This document shows positions 3,856 to 47,234 of a DNA stretch of 64,000 nucleotides, in pieces. Made by a program: the position numbers and the translations under genes. Source of the stretch: an uncultured virus (IMG/VR IMGVR_UViG_3300031841_005656) (taxonomy: Duplodnaviria > Heunggongvirae > Uroviricota > Caudoviricetes); IMG/VR virus record IMGVR_UViG_3300031841_005656. One strand, given 5' to 3'. The number at the start of each line of letters is the position of its first letter. Position 1 is the first letter of the stretch. The notes under the pieces are model-generated. The model ran no database searches. It had not been told where the DNA came from and saw only the letters and a list, made by a program, of their open reading frames with translations.

Positions 3856-4059
3856 ATGTCTAAACAACAATACGCCGCAAAATACAGAATAAAAGGCGCA
3901 AAAGATTGGAGCAATATCTATTTTTGGGCCGACAATGACGAAGAAGCGCAACAAGAATGGGAGAAAAGTTTTAAATATGAGTGGAGCAGCATGGAATATG
4001 CGTTGGAAAAAATTGAAAAAAAGTCTGAAAAAGATGTTGACGCATCGAAGGACGCATGA
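3856..4059 (+). CDS. hypothetical protein
   Basis: 67-aa ORF. Confidence 0.55.
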   Translation: MSKQQYAAKYRIKGAKDWSNIYFWADNDEEAQQEWEKSFKYEWSSMEYALEKIEKKSEKDVDASKDA

Positions 4060-6128: not shown

Positions 6129-7073
6129 ATGTCAGAACCATTTGCTGAACTGTTTGGACAAAACAACGTCAAGAAACGCTTAAAATTTTATTTAAAAGCG
6201 TTTGAAAATACAAGTATTTGCCCGTTCCTATTGCTCGTCGGGGCCAAGGGGTTGGGTAAAACTGAGTTTGCGCGGCAATTTGCCAGTAACTTGAGCAATC
6301 AAGATGGTAAGTCCCGCCCATTTCTTGAGCTTAACTGCTCCACAATAAAAAATCTGGAGGGATTCTTCGACCAGATTTATATTCCGCTCGTCATGGACAA
6401 CGAGATCACCGTATTGTTCGACGAGGCACATGAGTTGCCCAAGGACGTAACCAATGCGTTCCTCACGGTATTTAATACTGAGCGCGGACATACCCGCGAC
6501 TTTCGTTGGCGCGACGGCGAATACCCGTTTGACTTCAAGAAGCAGACTTTTTTGTTTGCTACAACCGAGCCAGACAAGTTGTTCCCGCCGCTCAAAGATC
6601 GCCTCACGACAGTTGATTTTGAGGATTATTCTGCATCTGAATTGGCAAAAATTCTTGAATCTCAATGCGAAGATATTTCGTTTGAGGAATCGGTGCTGGT
6701 CAAGTTGGCTGAAACGTCTCGCGGCAATGCGCGAGATTGTGTTAAACGAGCAAAAGATATTGAGTTGTTTTGCTCCGCGAAGGGGTCGAAGATATTCATG
6801 GAATCTGATTTCCCTGACTTCTGCGACCAGTTGGGTATCAATCCGTTGGGCGTGAGTCACATTGAGAAAAAAATTCTCAAGATTTTGCGCGAGGAAGGTC
6901 AGGCATCGTTGCAGGAGTTGTGCGCGAAAACTGGCATGAGTCGTACTGCGATTCAACGTGACGTTGAACTTTATTTGATGAAGAAAAATCTTATTAAGAT
7001 CGACGGCAAGCGGCATATCACCAAGGCAGGTAGCGATTATATTGATACAGATGTCAAGTCAAAAACAGCGTAA
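6129..7073 (+). CDS. ruvB: RuvB-like Holliday junction branch-migration AAA+ ATPase
   Basis: F.ELFGQ..VK, Walker A GAKGLGKT, Walker B FDEAH, ATT...L..PL.DR, SRG..R, C-terminal winged helix (VE.YL.....I.....R.IT..G). Confidence 0.85.
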   Translation: MSEPFAELFGQNNVKKRLKFYLKAFENTSICPFLLLVGAKGLGKTEFARQFASNLSNQDGKSRPFLELNCSTIKNLEGFFDQIYIPLVMDNEITVLFDEAHELPKDVTNAFLTVFNTERGHTRDFRWRDGEYPFDFKKQTFLFATTEPDKLFPPLKDRLTTVDFEDYSASELAKILESQCEDISFEESVLVKLAETSRGNARDCVKRAKDIELFCSAKGSKIFMESDFPDFCDQLGINPLGVSHIEKKILKILREEGQASLQELCAKTGMSRTAIQRDVELYLMKKNLIKIDGKRHITKAGSDYIDTDVKSKTA

Positions 7074-7242
7074 GCATATCGAGGATATGCGGAGGGAGGT
7101 CGTGGAGCTTTGCTCCACGACCTCCAACAAGGTGAAGATCTCTCGTATGTGGGAAGCGGCGACCGGCAACATGGCACTCAACGATTACGAAGATAGCGAA
7201 TATGTCAATGTAATAATATATAATGGGCCGGATAAAAAATAG
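7051..7242 (+). CDS. hypothetical protein
   Basis: ORF overlapping ruvB end. Confidence 0.45.
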   Translation: MSSQKQRKHIEDMRREVVELCSTTSNKVKISRMWEAATGNMALNDYEDSEYVNVIIYNGPDKK

Positions 7243-7402
7243 AATTGTAAATAATAAAAAGCTAAATAAATAAACACTAAATAAGTAAATAATATAATTG
7301 TAAATAAATAAATTGTAAATAAGGCAAATACAAATAAGTGAATTATAAATAACTTAATAACAAATAAAGGGCGCGATATATAATTATAAAATTTTAATAA
7401 AT
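7243..7402. other. very AT-rich non-coding tract with iterated TAAAT/CAAAT words
   Basis: Directly abuts 47-bp element copy 1; similar tract at 11320-11450 abuts copy 4. Confidence 0.7.
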
Positions 7403-7449
7403 TTGTAATCTAACGCGGCGCGGCGACCCCGCAGCCTGTTAGATGTCAA
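7403..7449 (+). repeat. 47-bp element copy 1 (degenerate left arm)
   Basis: TTGTAATCTAACG-CGGC-GCGG-CGACC-CCGC-AGCC-TGTTAGATGTCAA. Confidence 0.85.
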
Positions 7450-7451
7450 GG

Positions 7452-7481
7452 AAAAAAAATCTCCTTTCGGAGATTTTTTTT
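7452..7481. terminator. bidirectional intrinsic terminator
   Basis: A8-TCTCC-TTTC-GGAGA-T8. Confidence 0.75.
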
Positions 7482-7488
7482 ATCAACC

Positions 7489-8121
7489 TCAGTGCTTTTT
7501 GTAATTGATATTCTCAACCGAACCGTCCCAACAAGCGCGGCACTCGGCGCACTGGTTGTCCTGTTTTGAGGCTGGACAGTTGAACCCGTCAGGAGAAACA
7601 CCGCTTGTTGTTAATCCTAATTTTTTTGCCAAGCTAGTTGGCGGCTTGCCGTCTATCATGTAAGCGGACAGTCTTATTGTCAAATTTTTTGGCACTTTAG
7701 CGAATTTCATCCACTCCCGCACGAAACCGTATTCTCTGGTTGGCAACCAAAATTTAATGTTGGGCAATCGCCTTGCAACCTCTGCAATCTTCTCAAGATG
7801 CCAGACACCTTGAACATCGCCGCTATCATGCCAGCGAAAATATCCGCTCTTCTCTTGCTTGCCGATAAGAAAAACCATGTAGTCCACCCAATGCAAACTA
7901 CTTAAAGATTTTAACCGTTTTTCCATTGCCGCGATAACATTCGGAAAAACATAACGGCCTTTTTTGGCGTAGCAAATTGAACAGATAGAATCAACTATCT
8001 TGGCCAGCTTGCTGCCCGTGATACAATCTTTTGCTGGCGTGCTGTATCCGTGGCCCGGCATCTTGGACGGCTTGGACAACGAACCAACTTTCTGTGTGAC
8101 TTCTTTGACGGTCATTCTCAT
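7489..8121 (-). CDS. phage GP88-family protein (Cys-rich)
   Basis: LSKPSKMPG..YS.PA..C..G.......S.C..CYA.KG.Y, YFRWHDSGD, FWLPTRE, C-terminal CPA...C..CR.CW. Confidence 0.75.
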   Translation of the reverse strand: MRMTVKEVTQKVGSLSKPSKMPGHGYSTPAKDCITGSKLAKIVDSICSICYAKKGRYVFPNVIAAMEKRLKSLSSLHWVDYMVFLIGKQEKSGYFRWHDSGDVQGVWHLEKIAEVARRLPNIKFWLPTREYGFVREWMKFAKVPKNLTIRLSAYMIDGKPPTSLAKKLGLTTSGVSPDGFNCPASKQDNQCAECRACWDGSVENINYKKH

Positions 8122-8155
8122 AACAAAAAAAATTTAACAGCTATCTGTGCAAATG

Positions 8156-8365
8156 TCAACCCCCAAACACAGAATCTTGACACGTTTGACACAGCTTAGA
8201 TATGCCGTACTCTTTGCGTGAAATTTCATCACGGAAATGATTTGCATCTGCGCCGCATGAAATGCACAATTGGTTGTCGGAAGAAACCTCGCGACTGCGG
8301 CCAAACAATTGCTGGCCCATGTTTTCAAGAAAAGATTCCATTTGATGGCTCTTATTTGTTTCCAT
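8156..8365 (-). CDS. small Zn-finger phage protein
   Basis: CISCG...FRDEISRKEYGISKLCQTCQDSVFG; promoter TTGACA-16-TAGACT-6-ATG. Confidence 0.7.
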   Translation of the reverse strand: METNKSHQMESFLENMGQQLFGRSREVSSDNQLCISCGADANHFRDEISRKEYGISKLCQTCQDSVFGG

Positions 8366-8433
8366 GCCCCAAGTCTACAGTAAAGCGGCCGAATGTCAAA
8401 TTTTAAAAAAACTTTTTTTAAAAAAGTTTTTGG

Positions 8434-8480
8434 TTGACTTCTAACGCTTCGCGGGCGGCCCGCCGGCCGTTAGATGTCAA
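8434..8480 (+). repeat. 47-bp element copy 2
   Basis: TTGACTTCTAACG-CTTC-GCGG-GCGGC-CCGC-CGGC-CGTTAGATGTCAA. Confidence 0.95.
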
Positions 8481-8504
8481 GGGAAAAATCAAAAAAATTC
8501 AAAG

Positions 8505-8534
8505 AAAAACCTACCCGCTTGCGCGGGTAGGTTT
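8505..8534 (-). terminator. intrinsic terminator of DUF932 module
   Basis: AAACCTACCCGC-TTGC-GCGGGTAGGTTT with A-run on the left. Confidence 0.75.
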
Positions 8535-8577
8535 GCGTTATGAGGACATGGCCCTCCCCGCAGGGAGGGCCAAGGTG

Positions 8578-9345
8578 TTAGGCCTCCAGCACGACGTCAG
8601 CCTGACGCTCGAACTTGACCCCGCAGTGACCGTCCATGAAACCATGGAGAGCTTGCGTGCGCTTGGGCAACTCGTTGAGGTTGCCTTTCAACACCTCGGT
8701 GAAGGCATTGAACATTGACCACGCATTGCGCGGCTTGAACTCAGGGTGGTTTGGCGCGTGCCATTGATCAACCACCTTGCGAATCTGCGTGCTTGTACAA
8801 GCACCAGCGCGGAACGCCTCGATGATAACATCGTGCGCCTCGGAACGGGACAGCCCGTGATCGCGGTATGCGTTGAAGCGTTGCTTCTGCAAACCCCATG
8901 CGTCACCCAACTTGCCGATGGTGCGGGACACCAACTGTGGCAAATCGCGGAGGATGTGAACCGTATGCTTACGGCCTAACTTGACCTCGCCGTTGAAGGA
9001 GAGGTTGTCGCAGACAAAAACATTCGCACCAAACGCAAGCGCAGATGGAAAAGTTTTGTCGTGAGAATTACGCAGCCCCATGACTGCACCGTAATCCTGA
9101 GATTCACTGGATTCGCTACCAGTGCCGATGCGAAACAAACCGAAGTACCGATTTGCATCGTGAGTGAGAGCATGACTTTCCTCAAGGATAGCCATATTCG
9201 CACGGCCCAAACCATCGCGAACTAGGTCAACGAGGTGGGAATGGGGGATGGGCGTGTGCGTCCGAGTTGCCTCGGGCGTCACGGAATCCTGAACTTCGCC
9301 GTACTCGACTCGGTTCGCCCCGCAGTGTAACATTAAACCTGTCAT
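8578..9345 (-). CDS. DUF932-family protein
   Basis: LMLHCGA, TH.PIPH, GLRNSHDK.F....A.G..VFVCDNLSF.GE, RKHT, R.AWS.FNAFTE..K. Confidence 0.85.
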   Translation of the reverse strand: MTGLMLHCGANRVEYGEVQDSVTPEATRTHTPIPHSHLVDLVRDGLGRANMAILEESHALTHDANRYFGLFRIGTGSESSESQDYGAVMGLRNSHDKTFPSALAFGANVFVCDNLSFNGEVKLGRKHTVHILRDLPQLVSRTIGKLGDAWGLQKQRFNAYRDHGLSRSEAHDVIIEAFRAGACTSTQIRKVVDQWHAPNHPEFKPRNAWSMFNAFTEVLKGNLNELPKRTQALHGFMDGHCGVKFERQADVVLEA

Positions 9346-9448
9346 AACTTTGATAGGGTGTTGACCTCATTGCCAACGAAAAAATAATGCACCATTTGGA
9401 GATGAATTGCAACATAAAAAACACAATAATCGAAAAAAAATTACACTC

Positions 9449-9477
9449 AAAAAAAATGCACCGGAGGTGCATTTTTT
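9449..9477. terminator. hairpin flanked by A and T runs (bidirectional terminator-like)
   Basis: A8-TGCACC-GGA-GGTGCA-T6 immediately left of copy 3. Confidence 0.55.
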
Positions 9478-9479
9478 CC

Positions 9480-9526
9480 TTGACTTCTAACGTTTCGCGG
9501 CCGGCCCGCCGGCCGTTAGATGTCAA
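9480..9526 (+). repeat. 47-bp element copy 3
   Basis: TTGACTTCTAACG-TTTC-GCGG-CCGGC-CCGC-CGGC-CGTTAGATGTCAA. Confidence 0.95.
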
Positions 9527-9615
9527 GCAAAAAAACTTCCCTTCGGTAAGTTTTTTTTAAAATTTTTTTTAAAAAGACGGTTGACTCTATCTGTCTATGT
9601 AGTAAGATTTTGTGC

Positions 9616-10557
9616 ATGGAAACGACACTTTGCGTCAACGAGGAAAAGGCCAAGCAGCGCGTGTGGGTTATGAAAGCATTTAGCATTTGGCTAGATAGCT
9701 TGCAAAATTTTGTTAAGACTAGGCAAGGCACTAAATACACCGCGAAGGTTGGCACGGTTTACAGTTTGCCAGCCACACTTTGGGACTTTGAATCTTTTGT
9801 TGCTGCTAGAAGTTTGCAAATGTCCGAGATCAGCACAATGTTTGGTGTTAAGCATTCTGGCCAAATTAATTTGCATTGCTTTGAGAATGACGAATCCACA
9901 TATTGCGCCCAAACGGGGACACGCGCTTTTATGCGTAACGATAACGATCTTTATCCTAATTTCAGCGGCGAATATCATTTGAGTGACATTCCCAGCAACC
10001 AACACGCAAAAAATAATTTTGCTGCTTGGTATGATTTCACGGGCGTTCCGAGTCAATCCAATTTGGACATTGTGACTGACCCCAAAAATTTTGTCCATAA
10101 TAGTTTGGTGTTTGCCACGTTTGACGCTTGCGTCATTGCCAAGTCTTGTATGCCAGATGAAATTATTTCTGCTGTTGATTCTAGGATTGAGGAGCGCGGC
10201 GGCATCATGGCCGACCACATCACAGATGTGGTCGTCGATTACATTAACGAACGCACGGGCAATAAGGTCAAGTGCATCATGTCGGTCGAGTATCAAGCGC
10301 AAAAGCATCCGATGATGATGATCGGCTTCAGCAATTGTGCTGATGTTTTGAAGGTTTGCAATCCTATTCGTTCGCGCATCAACCGCGCCACTCCAAAATC
10401 TCCAAAATCTGCGCCGTTGAGCGACTCGAAAAAATCTCAGCTTGCCTCAGATTTAAAATATTTTCGTTTTACCCGTGATGAGTTGTGCGATATGTACAAA
10501 TGCACACCGGCTCAAGTCGGTGCGATCAAGGCCCATCACGGCGGAGGTTACGCTTGA
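9616..10557 (+). CDS. putative SAM-methyltransferase-like domain fused to a C-terminal HTH-like domain
   Basis: VYSLP...CFENDE...FAAWYDFTG...VFATF strand pattern; C-terminus LSDSKKSQLASDL...TRDELCDMYKCTPAQVGAIKAH; promoter TTGACT(9581)-16-TAAGAT-7-ATG 9616. Confidence 0.45.
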   Translation: METTLCVNEEKAKQRVWVMKAFSIWLDSLQNFVKTRQGTKYTAKVGTVYSLPATLWDFESFVAARSLQMSEISTMFGVKHSGQINLHCFENDESTYCAQTGTRAFMRNDNDLYPNFSGEYHLSDIPSNQHAKNNFAAWYDFTGVPSQSNLDIVTDPKNFVHNSLVFATFDACVIAKSCMPDEIISAVDSRIEERGGIMADHITDVVVDYINERTGNKVKCIMSVEYQAQKHPMMMIGFSNCADVLKVCNPIRSRINRATPKSPKSAPLSDSKKSQLASDLKYFRFTRDELCDMYKCTPAQVGAIKAHHGGGYA

Positions 10558-10662
10558 CATGAACCGAGCAACCGAGTATATTTCAGGCCGTGTATTTAGC
10601 AGTTATATTATTGGGGGGTTTATTGTTTGCTATTATGCTACACATTAAATCAAAAAATTAAA

Positions 10663-10782
10663 TTGAAAAAACTTGTTGACATATGGAAGAAGATACGTAA
10701 ACTTAGTGCGCCACCTGCAGTGGTGCACCGGGATAAAACGAAGTACACCCGGAAAGAAAAACACAAAAAAAGTTTGGATTAA
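10663..10782 (+). CDS. 39-aa basic peptide (IRK...PP..VH.DK.KY.RK.KH; not in ORF track)
   Basis: TTG start: MKKLVDIWKKIRKLSAPPAVVHRDKTKYTRKEKHKKSLD. Confidence 0.55.
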   Translation: MKKLVDIWKKIRKLSAPPAVVHRDKTKYTRKEKHKKSLD

Positions 10783-10899
10783 TCGTTGACATCATGAAGA
10801 CACTAGTGCAAACTTTTTGGAGTGCGGGATGCATAACGGAGCATTCGCGTGCTGGCCAAGTGGCCCTGATGCTAACCATGTAATGAAAGGAATATTCAA

Positions 10900-11133
10900 T
10901 TGAAATTGACTGAATCCCAACTTACCAAAATCGTCAGCGCAGTAGTTGACGCATTGACCGAGACTCCGACGTCTCGCCGTGCGACTGCTACAGGCAACGA
11001 CCGCAGCAACAACATTCGCGCCGCGATCCGCTCCGGCAAGAGCAAGTCTGCTGTTCGTCGCCAGTTCAAGCTGACCGATTACGAGTACCGTGGCCACAAG
11101 GCTACCGTGACCCGTATGGCCAACGGCAACTAA
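10900..11133 (+). CDS. small basic putative DNA-binding protein (HTH-like)
   Basis: TTG start after GAAAGGA; strongly biased codons; IRAAIRSGKSKSAVRRQFKLTDYEYRGHKA; promoter TTGACA(10786)-17-CAAACT. Confidence 0.65.
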   Translation: MKLTESQLTKIVSAVVDALTETPTSRRATATGNDRSNNIRAAIRSGKSKSAVRRQFKLTDYEYRGHKATVTRMANGN

Positions 11134-11289
11134 GCCGCAGCCAACAACCCACTCCCGTCCCAGAATCTGCTAGCCATCTGGGGCGGGAGGTGTCGGGCTC
11201 CGGTGTGAGCGTTACAAGTTACCATTGTTATTATATACATGATGTATTTCATTTAGGTTTCCGCTGGTTAGCATTGGGGATAGTTCGAT
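11134..11289 (+). ncRNA. candidate structured 3' UTR that pairs with the 5' leader
   Basis: 13-bp stem CTCCCGTCCCAGA/TCTGGGGCGGGAG; 11265-11279 complementary to 10864-10878. Confidence 0.45.
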
Positions 11290-11319
11290 AAAACCCCTCC
11301 CGCAAGGGAGGGGTTTTTT
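11290..11319 (+). terminator. intrinsic terminator
   Basis: CCCCTCCC-GCAA-GGGAGGGG-T6. Confidence 0.85.
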
Positions 11320-11421
11320 ATTTTATCTATAAATTATTTTATTGCAAATAGTAATCTCTGAAATAGTAAATAGTAAATACATAAATACTAAATAACCTGA
11401 AATATATAAATTATACTTTTG

Positions 11422-11446
11422 TAATATGTTGATAATCAGGCAATTA
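11422..11446. promoter_or_regulatory. IHF-consensus site inside AT-rich tract next to copy 4
   Basis: Minus strand TATCAACATATTA = WATCAA-N4-TTR; same TAA-N4-yTr-N5-CAr-N4-TTA layout as the 1044-1168 repeats. Confidence 0.5.
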
Positions 11447-11450
11447 TAAA

Positions 11451-11497
11451 AAAACATCTAATCTGTCACGGCGACCCCGCCGGCCGTTAGATGTCAA
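11451..11497 (+). repeat. 47-bp element copy 4 (degenerate left arm)
   Basis: AAAACATCTAATC-TGTC-ACGG-CGACC-CCGC-CGGC-CGTTAGATGTCAA. Confidence 0.85.
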
Positions 11498-11506
11498 CGA
11501 AAAAAA

Positions 11507-11722
11507 TTAATTTTTTTCGGGATCTTCCCATACGATTTCCCAATCGTACGGAGAGTTGGACAGGTCGCACGGGGCGACCTTGCACTTGACGGCGGACTTG
11601 GCCTCACGGGCGCAAGTGATCGCAGCCTCAAGACCCTCGTGGCTCGGAGCGAACCAATGGACAAACTCAAGCCGACCGGTGGCGGACTTGACCTCAACAA
11701 AGTATTTGGCATGAATCCTCAT
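11507..11722 (-). CDS. hypothetical protein (71 aa, MRIHAKY...)
   Basis: Start reassigned to GTT-ATG-AGG behind TTGACT-16-TATACT. Confidence 0.7.
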   Translation of the reverse strand: MRIHAKYFVEVKSATGRLEFVHWFAPSHEGLEAAITCAREAKSAVKCKVAPCDLSNSPYDWEIVWEDPEKN

Positions 11723-11756
11723 AACAAAAAACAGTATATCAAAATTTAAAAAAAAG

Positions 11757-11912
11757 TCAAGCGCATTCAGAGCATGACTCAAAAAACTTGCACCAGCACC
11801 GATCATCGGCCTCGGCCTCGACATCGTCGAAGCCGTTCGGGACAGTAACGTCCGCAACCCATGAATCCGCGTGCAACTCAAAAACCTCCTCACAAGTAAC
11901 ATTATCTCTCAT
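11757..11912 (-). CDS. acidic Cys-containing peptide (51 aa, MRDNVTCEEVF...)
   Basis: Start behind TTGACT-16-TATACT-10-ATG. Confidence 0.65.
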   Translation of the reverse strand: MRDNVTCEEVFELHADSWVADVTVPNGFDDVEAEADDRCWCKFFESCSECA

Positions 11913-11994
11913 AACAGAAATCAGTATACAGCATTTTTCAGATAAGTCAACCCCTAAAATGAAAAAAAATTTATTTTTATTTTTTGTTTTTTGT

Positions 11995-12041
11995 TTGACT
12001 TCTAACCGTTCGCGGCGTGCCCGCCCAGCGTTAGATGTCAA
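11995..12041 (+). repeat. 47-bp element copy 5
   Basis: TTGACTTCTAACC-GTTC-GCGG-CGTGC-CCGC-CCAG-CGTTAGATGTCAA. Confidence 0.95.
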
Positions 12042-12061
12042 GACTTTTTTTAAAAAAAATT

Positions 12062-12135
12062 TGGACGCGAGGGGCGGAATCGAACCGCCGATAAGAGTTT
12101 TGCAGACTCCCGCCTTACCACTTGGCTACCCCGCG
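12062..12135 (-). tRNA. tRNA-Cys (GCA) with encoded CCA
   Basis: CGCGGGG-TA-GCC-AAGTGGTAA-GGC-G-GGAGT-CTGCAAA-ACTCT-TATC-GGCGG-TTCGATT-CCGCC-CCTCGCG-T-CCA; U73 discriminator. Confidence 0.95.
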
Positions 12136-12141
12136 CGTACC

Positions 12142-12483
12142 TCAGTATCCTTCGATACTGAGGTTGCGGCCCATCGCCTCGAGCAGCCGCTTCCTAGTCA
12201 GGCTGCCGACGCTTTTGCCGTCGTTGATAGTCCAACGATTAGGACAGCCGAGCGAGAACCACATTTCCAGTTCGATGCTGGAGGGTTTGGAGTACGGCGA
12301 CCAGTCGAGATGGAACACGCGCTTGGTGGTGACAGCACAATGGATGTCGTGCCAGATCTTACTGACATCATCCTCGTGCTCGACCTCGGGGTCATAATAA
12401 AACTCATGACCGTCCTCGATTATCTGCAAACCTTCCGGTGTCATGTCGGTCTGCTTGAACTTATAGGTTTTCATTTCTCTCAT
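12142..12483 (-). CDS. hypothetical protein
   Basis: 113 aa; GTT-ATG-AGA start behind TTTACT-17-GATAAT. Confidence 0.75.
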   Translation of the reverse strand: MREMKTYKFKQTDMTPEGLQIIEDGHEFYYDPEVEHEDDVSKIWHDIHCAVTTKRVFHLDWSPYSKPSSIELEMWFSLGCPNRWTINDGKSVGSLTRKRLLEAMGRNLSIEGY

Positions 12484-12494
12484 AACAAAAAAGA

Positions 12495-12713
12495 TTATCG
12501 CACAAATTTTTCAACAAGTAAAGAAAATTTTTCCAATTCAGCCAATTTTTTTGGGCTTTTGGTGGGCTTGAATTCATTCAGCCAAAGCATCATAGCGGCA
12601 CGGCGCACGGCCACAGGAAAAGCCGGATCTGGCTTGCGCTTGGCGGGCGCGTCGCCCGTGGGAAAGGTGGACATATAGTCCGCCCAATCGATATCGGCAA
12701 ACGGGCTACCCAT
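12495..12713 (-). CDS. hypothetical protein (72 aa, MGSPFADIDW...)
   Basis: Start reassigned; GGAGG upstream; overlaps stop of the 12861 ORF. Confidence 0.6.
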   Translation of the reverse strand: MGSPFADIDWADYMSTFPTGDAPAKRKPDPAFPVAVRRAAMMLWLNEFKPTKSPKKLAELEKFSLLVEKFVR

Positions 12714-12861
12714 TGGACACCTCCTCATCCTGCGCGGCGATAGCTTCGTCGCGCCAGATGTCACACTGCGCCTCGTATTCAGCGCGAGCGTGGGGATCAT
12801 TGTGAAAAACCTCCTCAAGTGAAACTTGGGCCAACTCTGCGATCTGTTGATCTAACCTCAT
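12706..12861 (-). CDS. acidic peptide (51 aa, MRLDQQIAELAQ...; not in ORF track)
   Basis: TTGACA-16-TATTCT-9-ATG promoter. Confidence 0.7.
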   Translation of the reverse strand: MRLDQQIAELAQVSLEEVFHNDPHARAEYEAQCDIWRDEAIAAQDEEVSNG

Positions 12862-12944
12862 AACGGAATCAGAATACCACAAACTCAGAGAATGTCAACC
12901 CCTTAATACCAAAAAAAATAAAAAAACTTTTTTTATTTTTTTGC

Positions 12945-12991
12945 TTGACATCTAACGCTTCGCGGGGGCGCCGCCGACCGTTAGACGTCAA
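12945..12991 (+). repeat. 47-bp element copy 6
   Basis: TTGACATCTAACG-CTTC-GCGG-GGGCG-CCGC-CGAC-CGTTAGACGTCAA. Confidence 0.95.
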
Positions 12992-13003
12992 GACTTTTTT
13001 TAG

Positions 13004-13034
13004 AAAAAAAACACCCCGCCGAAGCGGGGTGTTT
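13004..13034 (-). terminator. intrinsic terminator
   Basis: A-run-CACCCCGC-CGAA-GCGGGGTG-TTT. Confidence 0.8.
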
Positions 13035-13046
13035 AGTGTTATGAGG

Positions 13047-13205
13047 TTATGATGGACAAGAAATTTTTTGCAGAGTTTTTGTGTCAGTCGATTCCATGAT
13101 TTTGACGAGGCGATTGGACAAGCCGCCAATCTGAATAATTTTTTTCAAGTAACAACGCAGCATTAGTTTTTCGTCGCTGTTCAGTTCGGGCAATGGTTTT
13201 TTCAT
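13047..13205 (-). CDS. hypothetical protein (52 aa, MKKPLPELNS...; not in ORF track)
   Basis: ATGA-coupled to the 13309 ORF. Confidence 0.55.
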   Translation of the reverse strand: MKKPLPELNSDEKLMLRCYLKKIIQIGGLSNRLVKIMESTDTKTLQKISCPS

Positions 13206-13309
13206 TTGAATATCTTTTTTAATTTGCGGTTACGATTTAAGCGTGCCTTGACTATATCAATTTCAATTTTTTTGTCAACTAAACTCCAGTTTATCTTAAT
13301 TGATCTCAT
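13202..13309 (-). CDS. basic peptide (35 aa, MRSIKINW...)
   Basis: GTTATGAGA start overlapping hydrolase stop. Confidence 0.5.
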   Translation of the reverse strand: MRSIKINWSLVDKKIEIDIVKARLNRNRKLKKIFK

Positions 13310-13785
13310 AACTTGTAGAATGCGTGTTGCCCAATTACTTTGACAGGCTTTTGGCCTTTTGCCCAATACGGTTTCTTTTTCATCCATGTTGCGTGGTAAT
13401 GATTAGCGAAGCCGATGAAATCACGCGACAGATGTTTGACATTTTTGGCCACGGTAATTGCATACTTGGCTTGCGGTACTTTCAACAGATGCTCAAGGTC
13501 TTTGACGGTTTTACCGTTCCAACAACTGAACTGCCATTTTTTAAGACAGACCTCCGATGGGGTTTGTTTTCTTTCAAATGCTCTCTGAGCGATGCAAGCA
13601 CCAACAGCATACATTCCCGCTTCCCCTTCCCCTCTGGCCTCCGCCAAAATGGTAATGGCGACAATTTTTTGCTCTCTAGTGAGTTGATGATTTTTGTGCG
13701 TGTTTCCATAAGCAGAGACGGTAACAATGGCCAAGCAGATCCAGTAAAAGATTCTAAAACTTTTGCTTAAAAGAATTTTTTTCAT
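13306..13785 (-). CDS. cell wall hydrolase, SleB/CwlJ (Hydrolase_2) family, with N-terminal signal/anchor
   Basis: TILAEARGEG..GM.AV, QFSCWN, ANHYHA...PYWA......IGQHAFY. Confidence 0.9.
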   Translation of the reverse strand: MKKILLSKSFRIFYWICLAIVTVSAYGNTHKNHQLTREQKIVAITILAEARGEGEAGMYAVGACIAQRAFERKQTPSEVCLKKWQFSCWNGKTVKDLEHLLKVPQAKYAITVAKNVKHLSRDFIGFANHYHATWMKKKPYWAKGQKPVKVIGQHAFYKL

Positions 13786-13796
13786 TTTATTGATTT

Positions 13797-14018
13797 TTAG
13801 TTTTCGACGGGGAACATACCTTCCAACCTATCCATGCGGAACCGCTTGTATTTGCCAGTCTCGGTGCAAGTGCCGCCGATGCCAGCGAACTTTTCGTTGT
13901 TTGAACGATTCTCGAAAGATTCGTCCAACTCAATCCGATAGCTGTGCAGGTCGTTGTTCTTGTTGATAACCCCGTTGTGGATTTCGGGCCGATAGAATAT
14001 GTTCATGATTTCTCTCAT
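13797..14018 (-). CDS. small WYL/SH3-like domain protein (73 aa)
   Basis: IFY...G.C.ETGKYKRFRMDRL ending; promoter TTGACT-16-TAAACT-10-ATG. Confidence 0.55.
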   Translation of the reverse strand: MREIMNIFYRPEIHNGVINKNNDLHSYRIELDESFENRSNNEKFAGIGGTCTETGKYKRFRMDRLEGMFPVEN

Positions 14019-14065
14019 AACAAAAATTAGTTTATCAGGTTTTTCGGTAAAGTCAACAATTATTT

Positions 14066-14305
14066 TTAGCCAAATTTGGGAAATCCTTGGTAGCGATAGA
14101 CTCCGAGCAGGTCGCCGTTGTTGCCGTGGGCAACTTGGCAACCGTCCTCTTCCAGCACCCACGGAAACCCATTCTTGTCGGCCTCTTCGGCCATCTCCAT
14201 TGCCGCGTTCATCGCAGAGTGATCCCAACCGGTCTTGTTGGAGAATTCTTCGCTGCGCACCCTATTGGTGTCTTCGTCCTTCCAGTATAACGTGTACGTC
14301 CTCAT
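14066..14305 (-). CDS. hypothetical protein (79 aa, MRTYTLYW...)
   Basis: Promoter TTGACT-17-TTTAAT-10-ATG. Confidence 0.7.
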   Translation of the reverse strand: MRTYTLYWKDEDTNRVRSEEFSNKTGWDHSAMNAAMEMAEEADKNGFPWVLEEDGCQVAHGNNGDLLGVYRYQGFPKFG

Positions 14306-14347
14306 AACTCCGTTTATTAAATCACAGTTTGCGCTCAAAGTCAACAA

Positions 14348-14509
14348 TTATTTTTTATTTTTTTGAGCTTCGGCATCGAGAAGCTTCCGCTTCTCGATGT
14401 TAAACTTACGAACTTTTAGCTGGTGGTCTTTGATCGGGTCAAAGGCCAGCCACTTGCCGAACATGATTTCCTTTTCCAGTTTTTGGATTTTGATGTCGAT
14501 TTCCCTCAT
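14348..14509 (-). CDS. basic peptide (53 aa, MREIDIKIQK...; not in ORF track)
   Basis: Promoter TTGCAA-16-TATACT-10-ATG. Confidence 0.65.
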   Translation of the reverse strand: MREIDIKIQKLEKEIMFGKWLAFDPIKDHQLKVRKFNIEKRKLLDAEAQKNKK

Positions 14510-14600
14510 AACGAAAAACAGTATATCACAGCTTCAGAAAATTGCAAGCACTTTTTTCACTTTTTTAAAAAAACTTTTTTAAATTTTTTGCATTTTAGGC

Positions 14601-14647
14601 TTGACATCTAACGTTTCGCGGCCGGCCCGCCGGCCGTTAGACGTCAA
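14601..14647 (+). repeat. 47-bp element copy 7
   Basis: TTGACATCTAACG-TTTC-GCGG-CCGGC-CCGC-CGGC-CGTTAGACGTCAA. Confidence 0.95.
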
Positions 14648-14648
14648 C

Positions 14649-14675
14649 AAAAAAAACGCACTTTGTGCGTTTTTT
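14649..14675. terminator. bidirectional intrinsic terminator
   Basis: A8-CGCAC-TTT-GTGCG-T6. Confidence 0.7.
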
Positions 14676-14883
14676 ATTCTAGCGCCTGACCAAATCGCAC
14701 AAGCATAGTTTTGGGCGTGCCATCATCGGGAGCTTTGACAAACTTATCCCATGACGGAGGATAATATACCGTTGTGACGCTGTTAGTATCGGCAAACGAT
14801 ATTTTACGATGCACAATTTCCTTCTCGGTAACCACGCAACCTGTTAAACAGATCGCACCAACTAAACAGATTATTTTTTTCAT
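14674..14883 (-). CDS. small putative lipoprotein
   Basis: MKKIICLVGAICLTGC lipobox. Confidence 0.6.
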   Translation of the reverse strand: MKKIICLVGAICLTGCVVTEKEIVHRKISFADTNSVTTVYYPPSWDKFVKAPDDGTPKTMLVRFGQALE

Positions 14884-14884
14884 T

Positions 14885-15349
14885 TTAACTCCAGCCGCGC
14901 ACTTCAATTATCAATTTTTTTATCTCGCTGACTATATTGTCGGGAATGACTTGAGTCAACCACTTTGTGCCGTACGTATAACCGCGATCAACATACAGAT
15001 CATTTTTTTTCAAAAATTCACATCGATCATCGTAATCTGTTGATGGACATTTTTTTAAAATTTCCGCTTGCTGTTGAGTGCCAGCTTGAAGATCATTTAG
15101 ATGATATTTTTTCCAGTATTTGTATATACGGCGAAAAAGATAGTTATCACCATTCAATCGATACATTTCATCGAGATTTTGCCCAAACGAATCATTTGAG
15201 ATTTCACCGGACGCGCTGAACGTATAAGCTGACTCAACGTTTTCAAGTGTGCGCCAATCGATGGAAGGACGGTCTCTCATTTCGAGACCGAAGTCCACCA
15301 CGCAACGCGATCCGTCGCTGCCGGTCATTGTTAATTTGGCCGACATCAT
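14885..15349 (-). CDS. conserved phage hypothetical protein
   Basis: FSASG....GQ.LDE...W..YHLND..AG...Q...Y.YG..WL pattern; start at ATGA overlap with the 15543 ORF. Confidence 0.7.
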   Translation of the reverse strand: MMSAKLTMTGSDGSRCVVDFGLEMRDRPSIDWRTLENVESAYTFSASGEISNDSFGQNLDEMYRLNGDNYLFRRIYKYWKKYHLNDLQAGTQQQAEILKKCPSTDYDDRCEFLKKNDLYVDRGYTYGTKWLTQVIPDNIVSEIKKLIIEVRGWS

Positions 15350-15543
15350 TTGGCACCTCCATTCTTTATGGTGGCAGAATGTATATTCGGCCAAACGACC
15401 TCGCCGCCGAAGGTCACCTCAGTATCCTCCCGCGCGGCCAACGTGATGGCCTTTTCAAGACCATCGTGAGAACGTGCGAAACCAGCAACATCACCAGAGT
15501 TGGCGATCCGAACCGTGTACATATTATCAAACATATCTCTCAT
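15346..15543 (-). CDS. hypothetical protein (65 aa, MRDMFDN...)
   Basis: Promoter TTGCTT-16-TATACT-10-ATG. Confidence 0.7.
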   Translation of the reverse strand: MRDMFDNMYTVRIANSGDVAGFARSHDGLEKAITLAAREDTEVTFGGEVVWPNIHSATIKNGGAK

Positions 15544-15584
15544 AACGAAAAAAAGTATATCAGACTCTCAGAAAAAAGCAAGCG

Positions 15585-15728
15585 TTAATTTGAATTTTTT
15601 TTCTTTTTTAAGCCGCGTTTGAACTGCTCCCATGTGGGGCGTTCGGCTTCGGGAATCATTTCCCATTCCTTTTTTTGCGCTTGGCGTATCCAGTTTGCAA
15701 ACTCAGCATTTTTAATCATATCTCTCAT
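15585..15728 (-). CDS. basic peptide (47 aa, MRDMIKN...)
   Basis: Promoter TTGCAA-16-TATACT-10-ATG. Confidence 0.65.
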   Translation of the reverse strand: MRDMIKNAEFANWIRQAQKKEWEMIPEAERPTWEQFKRGLKKKKNSN

Positions 15729-15810
15729 AACTGGAGACAGTATAGCACAGCCACAGAAAATTGCAACCCTTTTTTTAAAAAAAATAAAAAAACTTTTTTT
15801 ATTTTTCTTG

Positions 15811-15857
15811 TTGACATCTAACGTTTGGGCGCAAGGCCGCCGGCCGTTAGACGTCAA
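15811..15857 (+). repeat. 47-bp element copy 8
   Basis: TTGACATCTAACG-TTTG-GGCG-CAAGG-CCGC-CGGC-CGTTAGACGTCAA. Confidence 0.95.
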
Positions 15858-15878
15858 GCTTTTTCTTCACTTTTTTTC

Positions 15879-15910
15879 AAAAAAAACACCCCGCTTTCGC
15901 GGGGTGTTTT
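15879..15910 (-). terminator. intrinsic terminator
   Basis: A8-CACCCCGC-TTTC-GCGGGGTG-TTTT; near-identical to 13004-13034. Confidence 0.8.
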
Positions 15911-15921
15911 ACTGTTATGAG

Positions 15922-16089
15922 GTAGACAACGCACACACGGGTCCACAGATTATTGAGTCGCTGCCGCACCACCAGCAGTAAAACGGGCGCGAGCTGCCTA
16001 TAAAAACTCGCAGGGGTATTTAACTCCGCCGACTCAAAATTGTCGGGGTTAGCTTTACATCTGCCCCGCCAGATGCACATGGTGTCTAC
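15922..16089 (-). ncRNA. candidate ~170-nt multi-branch structured RNA
   Basis: Closing stem GTAGACA/TGTCTAC enclosing CATCTG/CAGATG, TTGAGTCG/CGACTCAA, GCGAGTT/AGCTCGC and CTGCTG/CGGCAG; G-U pairs favour the minus strand. Confidence 0.5.
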
Positions 16090-16090
16090 A

Positions 16091-16306
16091 CTAACTGACC
16101 GGCTCAAGGATACCGATTTGGTCGATGTTGAATCGACGAATGCCGCAGCTTTCGCCGTTCTGGAACTTGTAGCCGATAATGTGGTCGGCGTGACGCTCGG
16201 TGATGGCTACCGTGTATTCGTTGGTGCGGCCATCCTGCCGAGTGTAGGTGATGTGGTGGCGTGGTACGCTCTCTATTTCCTTTAGGATTTGTTCAGTTGT
16301 CATCAT
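16091..16306 (-). CDS. small WYL/SH3-like domain protein (71 aa; frame is also open from ATG 16495)
   Basis: ITYTRQDGRTNEYTV.......IIGY......IRRFNIDQI; own promoter TTGACT-17-TAAGCT with hairpin leader. Confidence 0.6.
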   Translation of the reverse strand: MMTTEQILKEIESVPRHHITYTRQDGRTNEYTVAITERHADHIIGYKFQNGESCGIRRFNIDQIGILEPVS

Positions 16307-16494
16307 AACTTTTTTTGTGTTTGGGTTCTTCCGAACCGCTGAGAAAAGCTTATTCCATATTGAGCGCAGAGTCAACCCTTTTGATAACTTTTTTTCAACT
16401 TTTTTTTCTGCGCGGGGCGGGTCGAATCGTTGATTAAATTCTCTTATCTTTTGCTCAATTGCCTTTAGGTCGGGCTTTACGTTTATTTGGTTCA

Positions 16495-16722
16495 TTATTT
16501 GAATTTTGTTGTGATGTGGTAGTTTCCACAGATTTTGCATTGGTAGATACGTGACTTGGTCTTGTAATACTTTTGCTGATTCTTAACATGCTTTTGTGCA
16601 TCCGACACTTTTTCAAATACTTTTTTGTCAAAGCATTGTATATAATATTTTTCTCTCAACTGCATATCCGGTTCTCCTTGGATAAAATCGTTAAAGACTT
16701 CGCTCTTCGTTCGCTTCTTCAT
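16495..16722 (-). CDS. small phage protein with YxCxxCGxYH Zn-binding motif
   Basis: C..KK.F....A...IYQCKICGNYHIT; TTGACA-17-TACAAT upstream. Confidence 0.65.
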   Translation of the reverse strand: MKKRTKSEVFNDFIQGEPDMQLREKYYIQCFDKKVFEKVSDAQKHVKNQQKYYKTKSRIYQCKICGNYHITTKFK

Positions 16723-16788
16723 GGCATTGTAGATGTTCGCATTTCGTTTGTCAAGTACGGGGTGCGCTTGCGCGCACCCCGTCAAGGA

Positions 16789-17088
16789 TTACATTGTGCC
16801 GTTGCTCGGCAGGTCTTTGCTGCCGTAGTTGTAGTTGCCCGCGTTGTACGGGTTGCGCATATGGCTACGGTCTACTTTTTTGCCGTAGATGTTGCGGTCT
16901 TTGTGGATGAACTTTTGGAAGCCCGCCGCGATAGCCTCCTTGATACCGCGCAGGTCTTCCGCGCTGATATTGGCCATTCCTTCGCAGCGTTCGGCCTCAT
17001 TGTTCAGCCGCTTGCTGAAATCTTTTTCGCCGAGGTTGCGTTGATGCGGCTCGAAGCCGCCCGTTTCGTTATTGTCTCTTGTTCTCAT
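16789..17088 (-). CDS. hypothetical protein (99 aa)
   Basis: GTT-ATG-AGA start behind TTGACT-17-AATAAT; followed by hairpin at about 16757-16782. Confidence 0.7.
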   Translation of the reverse strand: MRTRDNNETGGFEPHQRNLGEKDFSKRLNNEAERCEGMANISAEDLRGIKEAIAAGFQKFIHKDRNIYGKKVDRSHMRNPYNAGNYNYGSKDLPSNGTM

Positions 17089-17141
17089 AACCAGAAAAAT
17101 TATTGTCTATTCAGATGTTAAAGTCAACAGGAAATTTTTTT

Positions 17142-17408
17142 TTATTTGCTGAAGTAGCCGTGATCCTCAAAGCAGTTGACAATTTCAACGACGCGGTGAA
17201 TGTCACCAGCCAAAACTTTGTTGCCGTCGATATCTTTCTCCAACACCACTTGGTTGTGGTACTGGTCGATCATTTCCTGCTCGGTTGTGCCAAGCGGGAA
17301 AGTGCAGCCCTTGACACGGTTAACACGGGCCGAGAAGTGGTTGCCGGTGTAGGTTGGGTTCTTCTCCACTTTGAAGGTAACATTTAAAAATGGTTTCTTA
17401 TCTCTCAT
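17142..17408 (-). CDS. hypothetical protein (88 aa, MRDKKPF...)
   Basis: Promoter TTGACT-16-TATACT-10-ATG. Confidence 0.7.
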   Translation of the reverse strand: MRDKKPFLNVTFKVEKNPTYTGNHFSARVNRVKGCTFPLGTTEQEMIDQYHNQVVLEKDIDGNKVLAGDIHRVVEIVNCFEDHGYFSK

Positions 17409-19551: not shown

Positions 19552-21093
19552 ATGGGAGATATCCATACTTTAGCGAGTACAGGCAATATCAAAGGAATCA
19601 AGAAAGCTCTCTCTAACAAGAGGGCTTTTTTGTCGTTAGATGATGAACAAGGCTGGAGTCCGCTTCATTATGCTGCAAACTATAGTAAAGCCAAGATAGT
19701 TCAAATTATTTTGGATGCAGGTGTCAATCCAAACATAAAAAGCAAACCTCCTCAACCAAAAAAACAAAATGATTGGAATTTGGCATTAGAAGATAATAAA
19801 GAACATAAAATTTCCATTGTTCATCCTATGGACGTTGCCGAAGGTCCTCATCGAACAAAAATACTAAACAATCTCATATCAAAGGGTGGAGAATTTTGCG
19901 CAGAAGAATTGAACTTGCATCAAGCAGTTCAAATGCAAGATATCGATGAAATCGAATGTTTACTTGAAGATGACTCTATAAAAATAAATGAAAGAGATAA
20001 TAGAGGTTGGATGCCCATACATTATGCTGTTGAGATAGGTAATTTTGATATAGTTAAATTATTAGTAGAAAACAAAGCTAATGTAAACGGATCTACATTT
20101 GAGCCAGAGCTAGACCAACTTAATCCTTGGGAAATAGCAAACGATAATGAAAATGAGGAGATGCTAAAATATTTGGTTTCCAAAGGCGCAATGAAGCATT
20201 CTACAAGAGGCCAAGTAAAATATAAAAAATCCGCAGGTCAAATTAAAGTTGGTAATGATGAGCCGGAATTCAAAGGTCTAACATACGAAGATGTTCCTAA
20301 GCAACCAGAAGGATTGTTGGGCAAATTATTCGAGTCTAAATCTGATAAAATAAAAAGATTAGAGGCGGCAGCCGCACAAATGAAACAAAAAGAAGATCAG
20401 GCCGCCGAAGCTAGAAAGAAAATACAACAAGAAGAAGAAAAGAAAAAAAGACAGCGAGTTATTAAATGGAAGTGGGGAGAAGATCCATTTAAATTAAAAG
20501 GCGAATCGCTCGAGTACGATAGACCGTGCGAAGCTCATACATTTTTTATGGATATAGTTGGATATTCCAAAAAAAGTACGGCAGAGCAAAAAAAAGTAAC
20601 AGATGAACTTATATCGTATGTAAAAGGCACCCAAAGCTTTCAGCAAGCTCAAAGACAAGGTAAATTGATTATATTGCCTACCGGAGACGGTATGGCTTTA
20701 GTTTTTTTTAATTCGGTTCACGCTGCATTTAAATGCGCCGTGGACGTAGGAAAAAAAGTATATAAACATGCTCAAATTGGATTAAGAATGGGTTTGTATA
20801 CCGGACCGGTAGTTCCGGTAAAAGATATCAACGATAACCCTAATGTTTCGGGCGATGGCATCAACATGGCCCAGCGTTGCATGGACGCTGGGGATAATGA
20901 TCATATTTTAGTTTCTAATCATGTGCATCAATATGTTTGTGAAATGGATATCCCCGGATTGAAGTTCGAAGATTGGGGGCAGGTCATAGTTAAGCATGGG
21001 TCTACAGTTCATATGTGGACGGCATATGGTCCGGGCTTCGGCAGAACAGAGTTTCCGGACTGGAGAGGTACAAAAAGAGTTGAACTTGAATGA
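19552..21093 (+). CDS. ankyrin-repeat protein with C-terminal class III nucleotide cyclase domain
   Basis: GWSPLHYAA and GWMPIHYAV ankyrin repeats; coiled-coil linker; FMDIVGYS, TGDGMAL, RMGLYTGPV, GDGINMAQR. Confidence 0.85.
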   Translation: MGDIHTLASTGNIKGIKKALSNKRAFLSLDDEQGWSPLHYAANYSKAKIVQIILDAGVNPNIKSKPPQPKKQNDWNLALEDNKEHKISIVHPMDVAEGPHRTKILNNLISKGGEFCAEELNLHQAVQMQDIDEIECLLEDDSIKINERDNRGWMPIHYAVEIGNFDIVKLLVENKANVNGSTFEPELDQLNPWEIANDNENEEMLKYLVSKGAMKHSTRGQVKYKKSAGQIKVGNDEPEFKGLTYEDVPKQPEGLLGKLFESKSDKIKRLEAAAAQMKQKEDQAAEARKKIQQEEEKKKRQRVIKWKWGEDPFKLKGESLEYDRPCEAHTFFMDIVGYSKKSTAEQKKVTDELISYVKGTQSFQQAQRQGKLIILPTGDGMALVFFNSVHAAFKCAVDVGKKVYKHAQIGLRMGLYTGPVVPVKDINDNPNVSGDGINMAQRCMDAGDNDHILVSNHVHQYVCEMDIPGLKFEDWGQVIVKHGSTVHMWTAYGPGFGRTEFPDWRGTKRVELE

Positions 21094-33999: not shown

Positions 34000-34392
34000 A
34001 TGGCTAGTATATTTTGTCCAGAGTGTGGAGCTAAAAATCACTTCACTTTAAAGAAGCCGAACTTTTGTCAAAGTTGCGGTGAGACTTTTTCGGCATTTGG
34101 AATGGCTAAAGGCTCAACAGTAAAATCTGAGTCTTCTGCCAGTTCACGAGACGAGGATTCCGTGCCTAACATTTCAAAATTAGAGTATGAAATCGATTTG
34201 CCAAAAAGTAAAGTTACAATTGAAACTTTGGTAAATAATCCAATTAATCCGGAAGAAATTGCATACAATGCTGAAGCCACTGAGGGGTACAAAAAAATGA
34301 CCAAGGAGGATTTTTTAAAAGTGTCCCAACGCGAATGCGGCAGCTCTCGCGGGAATTACGAGGATGTAGGTGGCAGTGCCGGACAACAATAA
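34000..34392 (+). CDS. double Zn-ribbon protein
   Basis: FCPECG...KPNFCQSCG. Confidence 0.7.
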   Translation: MASIFCPECGAKNHFTLKKPNFCQSCGETFSAFGMAKGSTVKSESSASSRDEDSVPNISKLEYEIDLPKSKVTIETLVNNPINPEEIAYNAEATEGYKKMTKEDFLKVSQRECGSSRGNYEDVGGSAGQQ

Positions 34393-47154: not shown

Positions 47155-47187
47155 GTTATATTATACACTTTTATTGCGCATTTTCAC

Positions 47188-47214: not shown

Positions 47215-47234
47215 CTTGTGATCTTTAATTTTTA

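Follow-up and report, generated by a model that had tools for sequence, protein, structure and literature searches.

A previously undescribed 47-bp palindrome in PeSL-like linkers between early-gene modules of a marine tailed phage

Repetitive extragenic palindromic (REP) sequences and bacterial interspersed mosaic elements (BIME) are short, G+C-rich palindromes that lie downstream of genes, near terminators, in many copies, and the attC sites of integrons keep their structure while varying in sequence and length (~57–141 bp). Here we describe a 47-bp intergenic element that recurs in the early-gene array of an uncultured tailed virus (Caudoviricetes), within a stretch of 64,000 nucleotides (IMG/VR record IMGVR_UViG_3300031841_005656) that is referred to below as the window. 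T4-like phages carry promoter-early stem-loop (PeSL) cassettes (Arbiol et al. 2010, PMC2839356; Comeau et al. 2014, PMC4122927); according to PMC2839356, their stem-loops consist of runs of G followed by runs of C, and one relative may have the configuration motif–gene–motif where another has a single motif. Cluster A mycobacteriophages use stoperators, 13-bp asymmetric repressor sites with the sequence GGTGGMTGTCAAG in L5 and GTTACGWDTCAAG in Bxb1 (PMC3029335).

An original prediction, made from the sequence alone, had compared the locus with PeSL cassettes, and this comparison fits well (PMC2839356). Both are repeated intergenic motifs of ~100 bp that lie upstream of ORFans in a hyperplastic early region; in both, a sigma70-like promoter is preceded by an A+T-rich tract and accompanied by a G+C-rich stem-loop; and in both, relatives differ by motif-bounded insertions, deletions or replacements of modules next to ORFans, including one motif versus motif–gene–motif. 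In contrast to PeSL cassettes, the linker described here has a separate canonical terminator, its stem-loop is a palindrome of fixed 47-bp length with a 13-nt arm kept in distant relatives, and a shared gene-start motif forms an extra, frequent junction point; furthermore, the phage is not T4-like, its tape-measure protein being long and its terminase distant.

The element is a previously undescribed, widespread component of a PeSL-like promoter–terminator linker. PeSL-type linkers have been described for T4-like myoviruses, and in this unrelated phage family the variable early region is built around a linker that is analogous to them but differs in structure. A literature search with 12-mers of the arm returned four matches, all of them unrelated primers, and a literature search on pelagiphage intergenic repeats returned nothing relevant.

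Position, polarity and sequence of the element

Eight copies of the element are present at the positions originally predicted, all of them between 7.4 and 15.9 kb of the window:

7403–7449, minus strand: element copy 1, distal arm decayed; after the terminator-like hairpin 7451–7480 of the GP88-family gene 7489–8121, with A+T-rich 15-nt repeats on the other side
8434–8480, minus strand: element copy 2, exact match; after the DUF932-gene terminator 8534–8507 (minus), with a promoter at 8399–8372, 35 bp beyond
9480–9526, minus strand: element copy 3, exact match; at a divergent junction with the plus-strand gene 9610–10557, with hairpins on both sides; encloses, with copy 2, the 1046-bp DUF932 module
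11451–11497, minus strand: element copy 4, distal arm decayed; A+T-rich repeats 11361–11411 on the distal side
11995–12041, minus strand: element copy 5, exact match; immediately after tRNA-Cys
12945–12991, minus strand: element copy 6, exact match; after the terminator 13034–13009, with a promoter at 12898–12871 beyond
14601–14647, minus strand: element copy 7, exact match; terminator hairpin 14650–14675 abutting, promoter at 14547–14520
15811–15857, minus strand: element copy 8, exact match; terminator hairpin 15880–15908, promoter at 15766–15739; orthologous copy in the related records G002 and G004

Successive copies start 1031, 1046, 1971, 544, 950, 1656 and 1210 bp apart. The pattern TTGACWTCTAAC-N23-GTTAGAYGTCAA was matched exactly by six of the eight copies and by no sequence across 100 dinucleotide shuffles, and no extra element with at most one mismatch was found elsewhere in the window. 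The layout that had been claimed for all copies stood in its 47-bp length and in its right arm GTTAGAYGTCAA, which lies on the plus strand in every copy, in agreement with the claim of identical orientation, with the array genes on the minus strand. It did not stand in the left arm, which is decayed to TTGTAATCTAAC in copy 1 and to AAACATCTAATC in copy 4 beside an intact right arm, nor throughout in the GCGG-N5-CCGC centre, which is found in six copies, reads ACGG in copy 4 and is shifted to GGCG in copy 8. The integron-type heptamers were correctly reported: GTTRRRY occurs in all eight copies and RYYYAAC (as ATCTAAC) in copies 1, 6, 7 and 8.

Read in the direction of the array genes, the repeating unit consists of a gene, a terminator hairpin, a T-run, the element, an A+T tract and the next promoter, which confirms the order along the minus strand of promoter, gene or genes, terminator, element, A+T tract and next promoter. 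A terminator hairpin lies at most 25 nt away for six of the eight window copies, a distance much tighter than that between the element and the promoter: the next −35 hexamer follows at 35 to 65 bp in the window and at more than 100 bp in one related contig. In gene direction the conserved arm is CTTGACATCTAAC, and it abuts the T-run of the terminator. The element falls outside both predicted transcripts, which points to a role at the level of DNA; no RNA runs are among the public runs that hold the stretch. The repeat family D1 spans 91 nt, with 63–84% identity.

The array genes share a common promoter and start, and two further features of the modules are placed relative to individual copies:

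7489–17408, minus strand: 13 early genes with a shared promoter and the near-leaderless start GTTATGAGR (motif and promoter scans)
8578–9345, minus strand: DUF932-family gene of the module between copies 2 and 3 (PF06067, E 3e-6)
12062–12135, minus strand: tRNA-Cys, the last part of one module, directly before copy 5

The architecture common to the 13 genes is TTGACW-N16–17-TATACT-N~11-GTTATGAGR, in which ATG is the start codon. The motif GTTATGAGR has 17 matches in the window against 0.73 expected, and a consensus scan found 39 promoter-like sites against 18.4 expected. With only ~11 nt between the −10 hexamer and the ATG, and with no Shine–Dalgarno sequence, the early mRNAs are predicted to be nearly leaderless; most array products begin with M-R-(D/E/T). 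Nearly all of these products are ORFans, the exceptions being the GP88-family protein, the DUF932 protein and a cell-wall hydrolase. The arms of the element were also considered as promoters and rejected: they hold a −35-like TTGACA with no −10 partner at 16–18 bp, and they were absent from the consensus scan.

A separate motif, CCTCATAAC on the mRNA strand, is the reverse complement of the gene-start motif and occurs at 8537–8545, 13038–13046 and 15914–15922 (plus-strand coordinates). In three modules they fall after the stop codon and before the terminator, beside copies 2, 6 and 8, and could pair with the 5′ GUUAUGAGG of early mRNAs.

Shuffling of modules among relatives

The elements bound self-contained early-gene modules, as had been proposed, and relatives differ in the order, number and orientation of these modules. 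The IMG/VR record G001 represents the same phage (99.9% identity). Two further records, G002 (~72% nucleotide identity) and G004 (found by searching viral contigs with the window protein p77, described below), are collinear with the window outside the array and differ from it in module order inside the array, and G003 has ~0.9 kb in place of window positions 8.1–17.7 kb.

At least nine elements lie within 13.5 kb of G004, most with the arm variant GTTAGGTGTCAAG. One single element of this record (3922–3972) has the left flank of copy 2 and the right flank of copy 3, at the place where the window carries the 1046-bp DUF932 module. The module itself is present in G004 at 83% identity, translocated to a position after p77 and inverted. 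The element that follows the DUF932 terminator is inverted along with it and keeps its conserved arm against the T-run; its orientation therefore follows transcription, not the axis of the genome.

Junctions between relatives lie inside the linkers, at several points. Homology between contigs was seen to begin just outside the element, at −3 or −7, or within its arm, at +5, and in other cases to stop at +46, with nil resolution of the junction position within invariant stretches. The G002 record has a junction exactly at CTCATAAC, where a homologue of gene 14066–14305 is joined to the promoter that drives gene 12142–12483 in the window, and two metagenome contigs differ by a 1.8-kb indel with ~37 bp of overlap at a promoter repeat 116–153 nt after the element. 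Along the linker, junctions are found at the edges of the element or inside its arm, at promoters and, most often, at the gene-start motif.

Joints were also collected from assembled k-mer contigs of four public runs (at least 15 joints, repeats masked). Among the 30 joint ends listed for these seawater contigs, 8 lay within 15 nt of a start motif, compared with 3.4% expected (p ~5e-6), and 3 of the same 30 lay within 15 nt of an element, compared with 5.1% expected (p ~0.2). Contigs end inside elements (e.g., 9498–9515), as expected for repeats, and neither the uncovered parts nor the lack of element-to-element joints carries weight. The joint 8489|9455, between opposite strands, fits the inversion of the DUF932 module. 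Two of the 15 listed joints go back and may represent reordered variants or circles, an ambiguous signal; PeSL cassettes form mini-circles when neighbouring motifs exchange.

With so many linkers in direct orientation, we propose that homologous recombination between them shuffles the modules. The same process has been described for the PeSL cassettes of T4-like phages (PMC2839356).

Sequence recognition and competing explanations

On an evenly balanced judgement, we read the element as a component of a PeSL-like composite linker and a polar protein-binding site that would insulate early modules, the repeats providing the homology for shuffling. Its primary role is most likely that of a polar DNA site, recognised by sequence and tied to the 3′ end of an early module, where it would act as an insulator or roadblock. 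Along a linker that leads from the gene through an intrinsic terminator, T-run, element, A+T tract and sigma70-like early promoter to the predicted near-leaderless GTTATGAGR start, the element, uncovered by either flanking transcript, would act as DNA. A polar binder would read the terminator-proximal arm CTTGACATCTAAC by sequence, and once bound it would reinforce the terminator as stoperators do, serving as an operator or a roadblock that keeps each early module insulated. General homologous recombination between the direct-repeat linkers would then delete, insert, reorder and occasionally invert modules.

The sequence conservation behind this reading comes from a wider set of copies. A pattern scan recovered true relatives of the element in two further viral contigs and in many metagenome contigs, and once chance hits had been removed, at least 75 distinct copies remained in the window and a further 40 marine contigs, of which 75 were aligned; the search pattern fixed TCTAAC and the right arm and allowed a centre of 17–25 nt. 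The conserved unit is asymmetric and consists of CTTGACATCTAAC, a G+C-rich centre and GTTAGA, past which the distal arm varies (TGTCAA, CGTTTT, CATACG, TGTTGA and others). The base preceding TCTAAC in relatives may be A, G, T or C. The centre is variable in sequence and nearly constant in length, with 23 nt in 72 of the 75 copies and 22 nt in three, though 17–25 nt were permitted. An A- or T-run (at least six of seven bases) lies within 12 nt of the conserved arm in 58 of the 75 copies, and the arm is retained in relatives whose neighbouring proteins share only 30–60% identity.

These observations bear on a purely structural explanation, which we consider possible yet doubtful: a G+C-rich stem-loop or cruciform, the counterpart of the PeSL stem-loop, serving as a second attenuator of read-through or as a stabiliser of RNA 3′ ends, with no dedicated protein, and conserved by concerted evolution. 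With DNA parameters, each of the eight window copies folds into a hairpin (z −3.1 to −5.2), an outcome expected of any inverted repeat, and their centres show runs of G followed by runs of C like the PeSL stem-loops in PMC2839356; yet the element comes after the T-run of the terminator and has no T-run of its own. Concerted evolution finds some support in copies 3 and 7, whose identical 23-nt centres and differing arms suggest conversion between copies, but an arm conserved across such divergent neighbours and a centre fixed in length and variable in sequence speak against structure as the conserved property. When the full hairpin was imposed on the 75 copies, 78.5% of cells paired, double changes occurred at one pair only (two cells), and every shuffle did at least as well; the stems of the aligned copies thus hold no compensatory covariation above shuffles. 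RNAalifold retained just six invariant pairs. The outer three pairs (13–59, 14–58 and 15–57) form in only 26–41 of the 75 copies, which indicates that TTGAC of the proximal arm is not kept for pairing. Taken together, the often unpaired outer arm and the lack of covariation in the alignment favour sequence recognition at fixed spacing over a pure hairpin.

The arm also resembles a known class of binding sites. The 13-mer GTTAGATGTCAAG shares 11 of its 13 bases with the L5 stoperator and 11 with that of Bxb1, and a −35 mimic (TTGACA) accounts for much of this agreement. Like the stoperators bound by L5 gp71 and Bxb1 gp69 (PMC3029335, PMC9283540 and PMC6550527), the elements are intergenic and numerous, and they keep one polarity relative to transcription, with all eight window copies oriented like the 12 of 12 sites on the plus strand in the L5 right arm, where transcription of the genes is from the minus strand. 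The element arrays also repeatedly contain homologues of L5 gp82 and gp88. We treat the resemblance as one of working in a like manner, possibly by convergence, and not as membership in the stoperator class.

Three candidate binders are encoded with the array, namely p77, the p315 tail and the AAA+ winged-helix protein; they are given here together with the A+T-rich repeats that adjoin the last of these genes:

9610–10557, plus strand: p315, antisense to the array; methyltransferase-like in fold, ending in a tail of three helices
10900–11133, plus strand: p77, small basic four-helix protein, candidate DNA binder; antisense to the array
6129–7073, plus strand: AAA+ ATPase with a C-terminal winged helix; converges on the array end
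7232–7368, no strand assigned: TAAATAA-type repeats, A+T-rich and with a 15-nt period, lying between copy 1 and the ATPase gene (repeat family D2)

At least 10 contigs with elements have kept p77 beside p315, and the C-terminal helices of the p77 product are predicted with a pLDDT of 93. Homologues of p315 adjoin elements in eight contigs, and those of the AAA+ ATPase flank the array in eight open reading frames (ORFs) of related contigs. The p315 model (pLDDT 81) matches class I S-adenosylmethionine (SAM) methyltransferases in Foldseek (E ~1e-5), and its tail shows a weak pairwise match to the helix-turn-helix of L5 gp71 (E 0.002). p315 was rejected as a gp71-type repressor, its fold being methyltransferase-like and not that of a repressor, and tblastn gave no match for it in named phages.

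Two observations on these proteins are recorded separately. A near-invariant motif, SG(R/K)SK...FKL(T/A)(D/E)Y(E/Q)YRG, runs through p77 in at least 10 related contigs. The last 23 residues of p315 resemble a single transcription activator-like effector (TALE) repeat (PDB phmmer E 0.004), a match too weak to use.

A number of points weigh against the preferred reading. No protein was identified as the binder of the element: the helix-turn-helix tail is missing from distant p315 homologues, p77 resembles helix-turn-helix proteins only weakly in fold (E no better than 1.3), and its profile, searched against the PDB, gave a weak uS14-like match (E 0.9). No repressor of the L5 gp71 type was found in these incomplete genomes, tblastn yielding only the weak helix-turn-helix match to the p315 tail. 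In contrast to stoperators, which stand alone and genome-wide, the arm 13-mer never occurs alone, GTTAGR following at 17–25 nt in 63 of 63 occurrences, so that it always lies within a palindrome with a G+C-rich centre, and no copy lies outside the early array. The phage's likely hosts are not clearly Actinobacteria, as GP88 homologues are equally close in Pelagibacter, Caulobacter and Roseobacter phages as in Streptomyces phages, and the stoperator likeness may be a convergence on the −35 mimic. The invariance of the arms in the 75-copy set is partly imposed, since the search pattern fixed both arms; a profile search that did not force exact arms recovered the variants GTTAGGTGTCAAG and GTTAGATGTCCAG and 1-nt indels. 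In one copy, from Ga0208299, the two arms have changed in a matching way (TGTAAC with GTTACA), which is compatible with hairpin pairing, as in the structural explanation, or with a symmetric binder. Scored crudely by ORF strand over all contigs, the copies showed no bias in orientation (33 vs. 21 and 28 vs. 29), a test made uninformative by spurious antisense ORFs in G+C-rich genes and by double-counted palindromic copies. Finally, joints inside elements are under-detected, because repeats were masked and the runs consist of k-mer contigs.

The original prediction had read the array as an integron-like cassette system, and this mechanism is not supported. In its broader form, a dedicated recombination site, integron-like or for some other cassette exchange, would be served by an unseen site- or structure-specific recombinase that moves modules as circles; we find this highly improbable. 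The element does recall attC in its inverted GTTRRRY/RYYYAAC heptamers (the latter in four of the eight window copies), its imperfect hairpin with an unpaired internal stretch, its place at the 3′ end of the module, with which it inverts in G004, and the direct orientation of all copies of an array. The inner core ATCTAAC...GTTAGAY is kept even in copies without TTGAC, and the DUF932 module between two elements in the window as against one element in G004, together with the two joints that go back, is what excised or reordered cassettes could leave. Unlike attC, however, the element is constant in length and conserved in sequence, and its predicted folds contain symmetric internal loops, with no conserved single-base bulges that could serve as extrahelical bases and no covariation. 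Its central bases differ between copies, which would block strand exchange by a tyrosine or serine recombinase. Integron cassettes mostly lack promoters and share a common one, whereas the 13 genes have their own promoter and start motif, and several terminators are present. Exchange in integrons takes place at one fixed point in R′ (GTTRRRY); here, junctions map to both edges of the element (5′ and 3′), to its arm, to promoters and to start motifs, so that no one crossover point is apparent at the resolution given above. Nor do elements attract more joint ends than expected, though repeats were masked there.

The predicted lack of a recombinase in the window was borne out, and it extends further. 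No recombinase or transposase domain was found in the 81 window ORFs scanned, and no recombinase in 101 ORFs (at least 110 residues) of element-bearing related contigs, so that an integron integrase domain (PF00589) is absent from 182 ORFs in all. PF00589, PF00239 and PF01797, and with them tyrosine, serine and HUH recombinases, are absent from G001–G004, all of which are fragments, 15–42% complete, with G004 adding no new genome territory; this incompleteness is itself a point in favour of an enzyme encoded elsewhere. It is a long shot that an abundant marine phage family has a dedicated cassette exchange, in which an enzyme recognising the ATCTAAC...GTTAGAY core moves self-expressed modules as circles; if true, it would be a phage-borne functional analogue of the integron with very short sites.

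It is marginally more improbable still that the element is a selfish miniature palindrome, similar to REP or to miniature inverted-repeat transposable elements (MITE), spread between genes by a transposase encoded elsewhere. Its presence in 40 contigs besides the window, tandem double copies in one contig, and its character as a short, G+C-rich, multicopy extragenic palindrome 3′ of genes and beside terminators agree with REP and BIME. Against this, neither a Y1 (RAYT-type) nor any other transposase was found in the related-contig ORFs or in G001–G004, every copy has the same place and polarity in its linker and lies in one region of the phage genome, and no filled and empty sites differ by 47 bp alone, the sole such pair differing by a whole module plus one element.

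A replication site, with the copies acting as binding sites or polar fork barriers tied to the AAA+ winged-helix protein and the A+T-rich repeats, is likewise highly improbable, for although that gene and the 15-nt repeats flank the array and all window copies share a single orientation, the G004 element flips with its gene and no direct evidence for an origin was found.

The preferred reading, a polar binding site in a shuffled linker, has wider meaning. It suggests that self-contained modules joined by conserved regulatory linkers are a general phage route to the exchange of host-takeover genes. The unusually long, sequence-conserved polar palindrome with its stoperator-like arm is a concrete, testable site for a putative regulator, and the element could be used as a simple tag by which hypervariable early regions are recognised in virome sequences.

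Phage setting and further observations

The window is part of a tailed-phage genome, with a terminase (37102–38967), a 2387-residue tape-measure protein and PhoH. The G+C content is ~35% in the backbone and 39–51% in the array region (7.4–17.7 kb). No near DNA match was found among named phages and no T4-like relatives were found; the terminase shares less than 30% identity with those of Bacillus and Clostridium phages, and the long tape-measure protein is of siphovirus type. The best GP88 homologue belongs to Pelagibacter phage HTVC033P, but this phage has no element. The stretch is present in 20 public runs from nine studies, 17 of which hold at least half of the sampled words, and the labelled ones are seawater, ballast-water and biofilm metagenomes.

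A scan of 7–18 kb against Rfam gave tRNA-Cys as the sole above-threshold match, the others being sub-threshold look-alikes of terminators. The X19 contigs carry a different tRNA-like sequence at the place of tRNA-Cys.

The A+T-rich TAAATAA-type repeats form two stretches, the one at 7232–7368 with a period of ~15 nt and another at 11361–11411 with a period of 7–8 nt. They flank the decayed copies 1 and 4 distally, at the points where blocks on the minus strand adjoin plus-strand genes. The first follows the AAA+ winged-helix gene, and similar repeats come after double elements in related contigs; such repeats may be an origin or a transcription barrier. Tandem double elements were seen in Ga0255772_10003021 (loci L089–L094), at ~6808–6914 and ~10653–10745 of the merged stretch. 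Each consists of a full copy, ~17 nt and a second copy without TTGAC on both arms, followed by A+T-rich repeats and an antisense gene.

Several features outside the array were recorded on the way. Just beyond it, an ankyrin-repeat protein (19552–21093, plus strand) has a weak C-terminal match to adenylate/guanylate cyclases (E 2e-4, below the Pfam cut-off). Upstream of the terminase, the gene at 34370–35092 (plus strand) gives a weak match to sigma-70 region 2 (E 7e-4, below the cut-off), and the gene at 36159–37115 (plus strand) encodes an ERCC4-type nuclease domain. At 45619–48692 (minus strand), adjacent ORFs of 511 and 485 residues share DNA segments of ~75% identity (repeat families D5, D10 and D18; spacing ~1.58 kb), which looks like a tandem gene duplication in the structural region.

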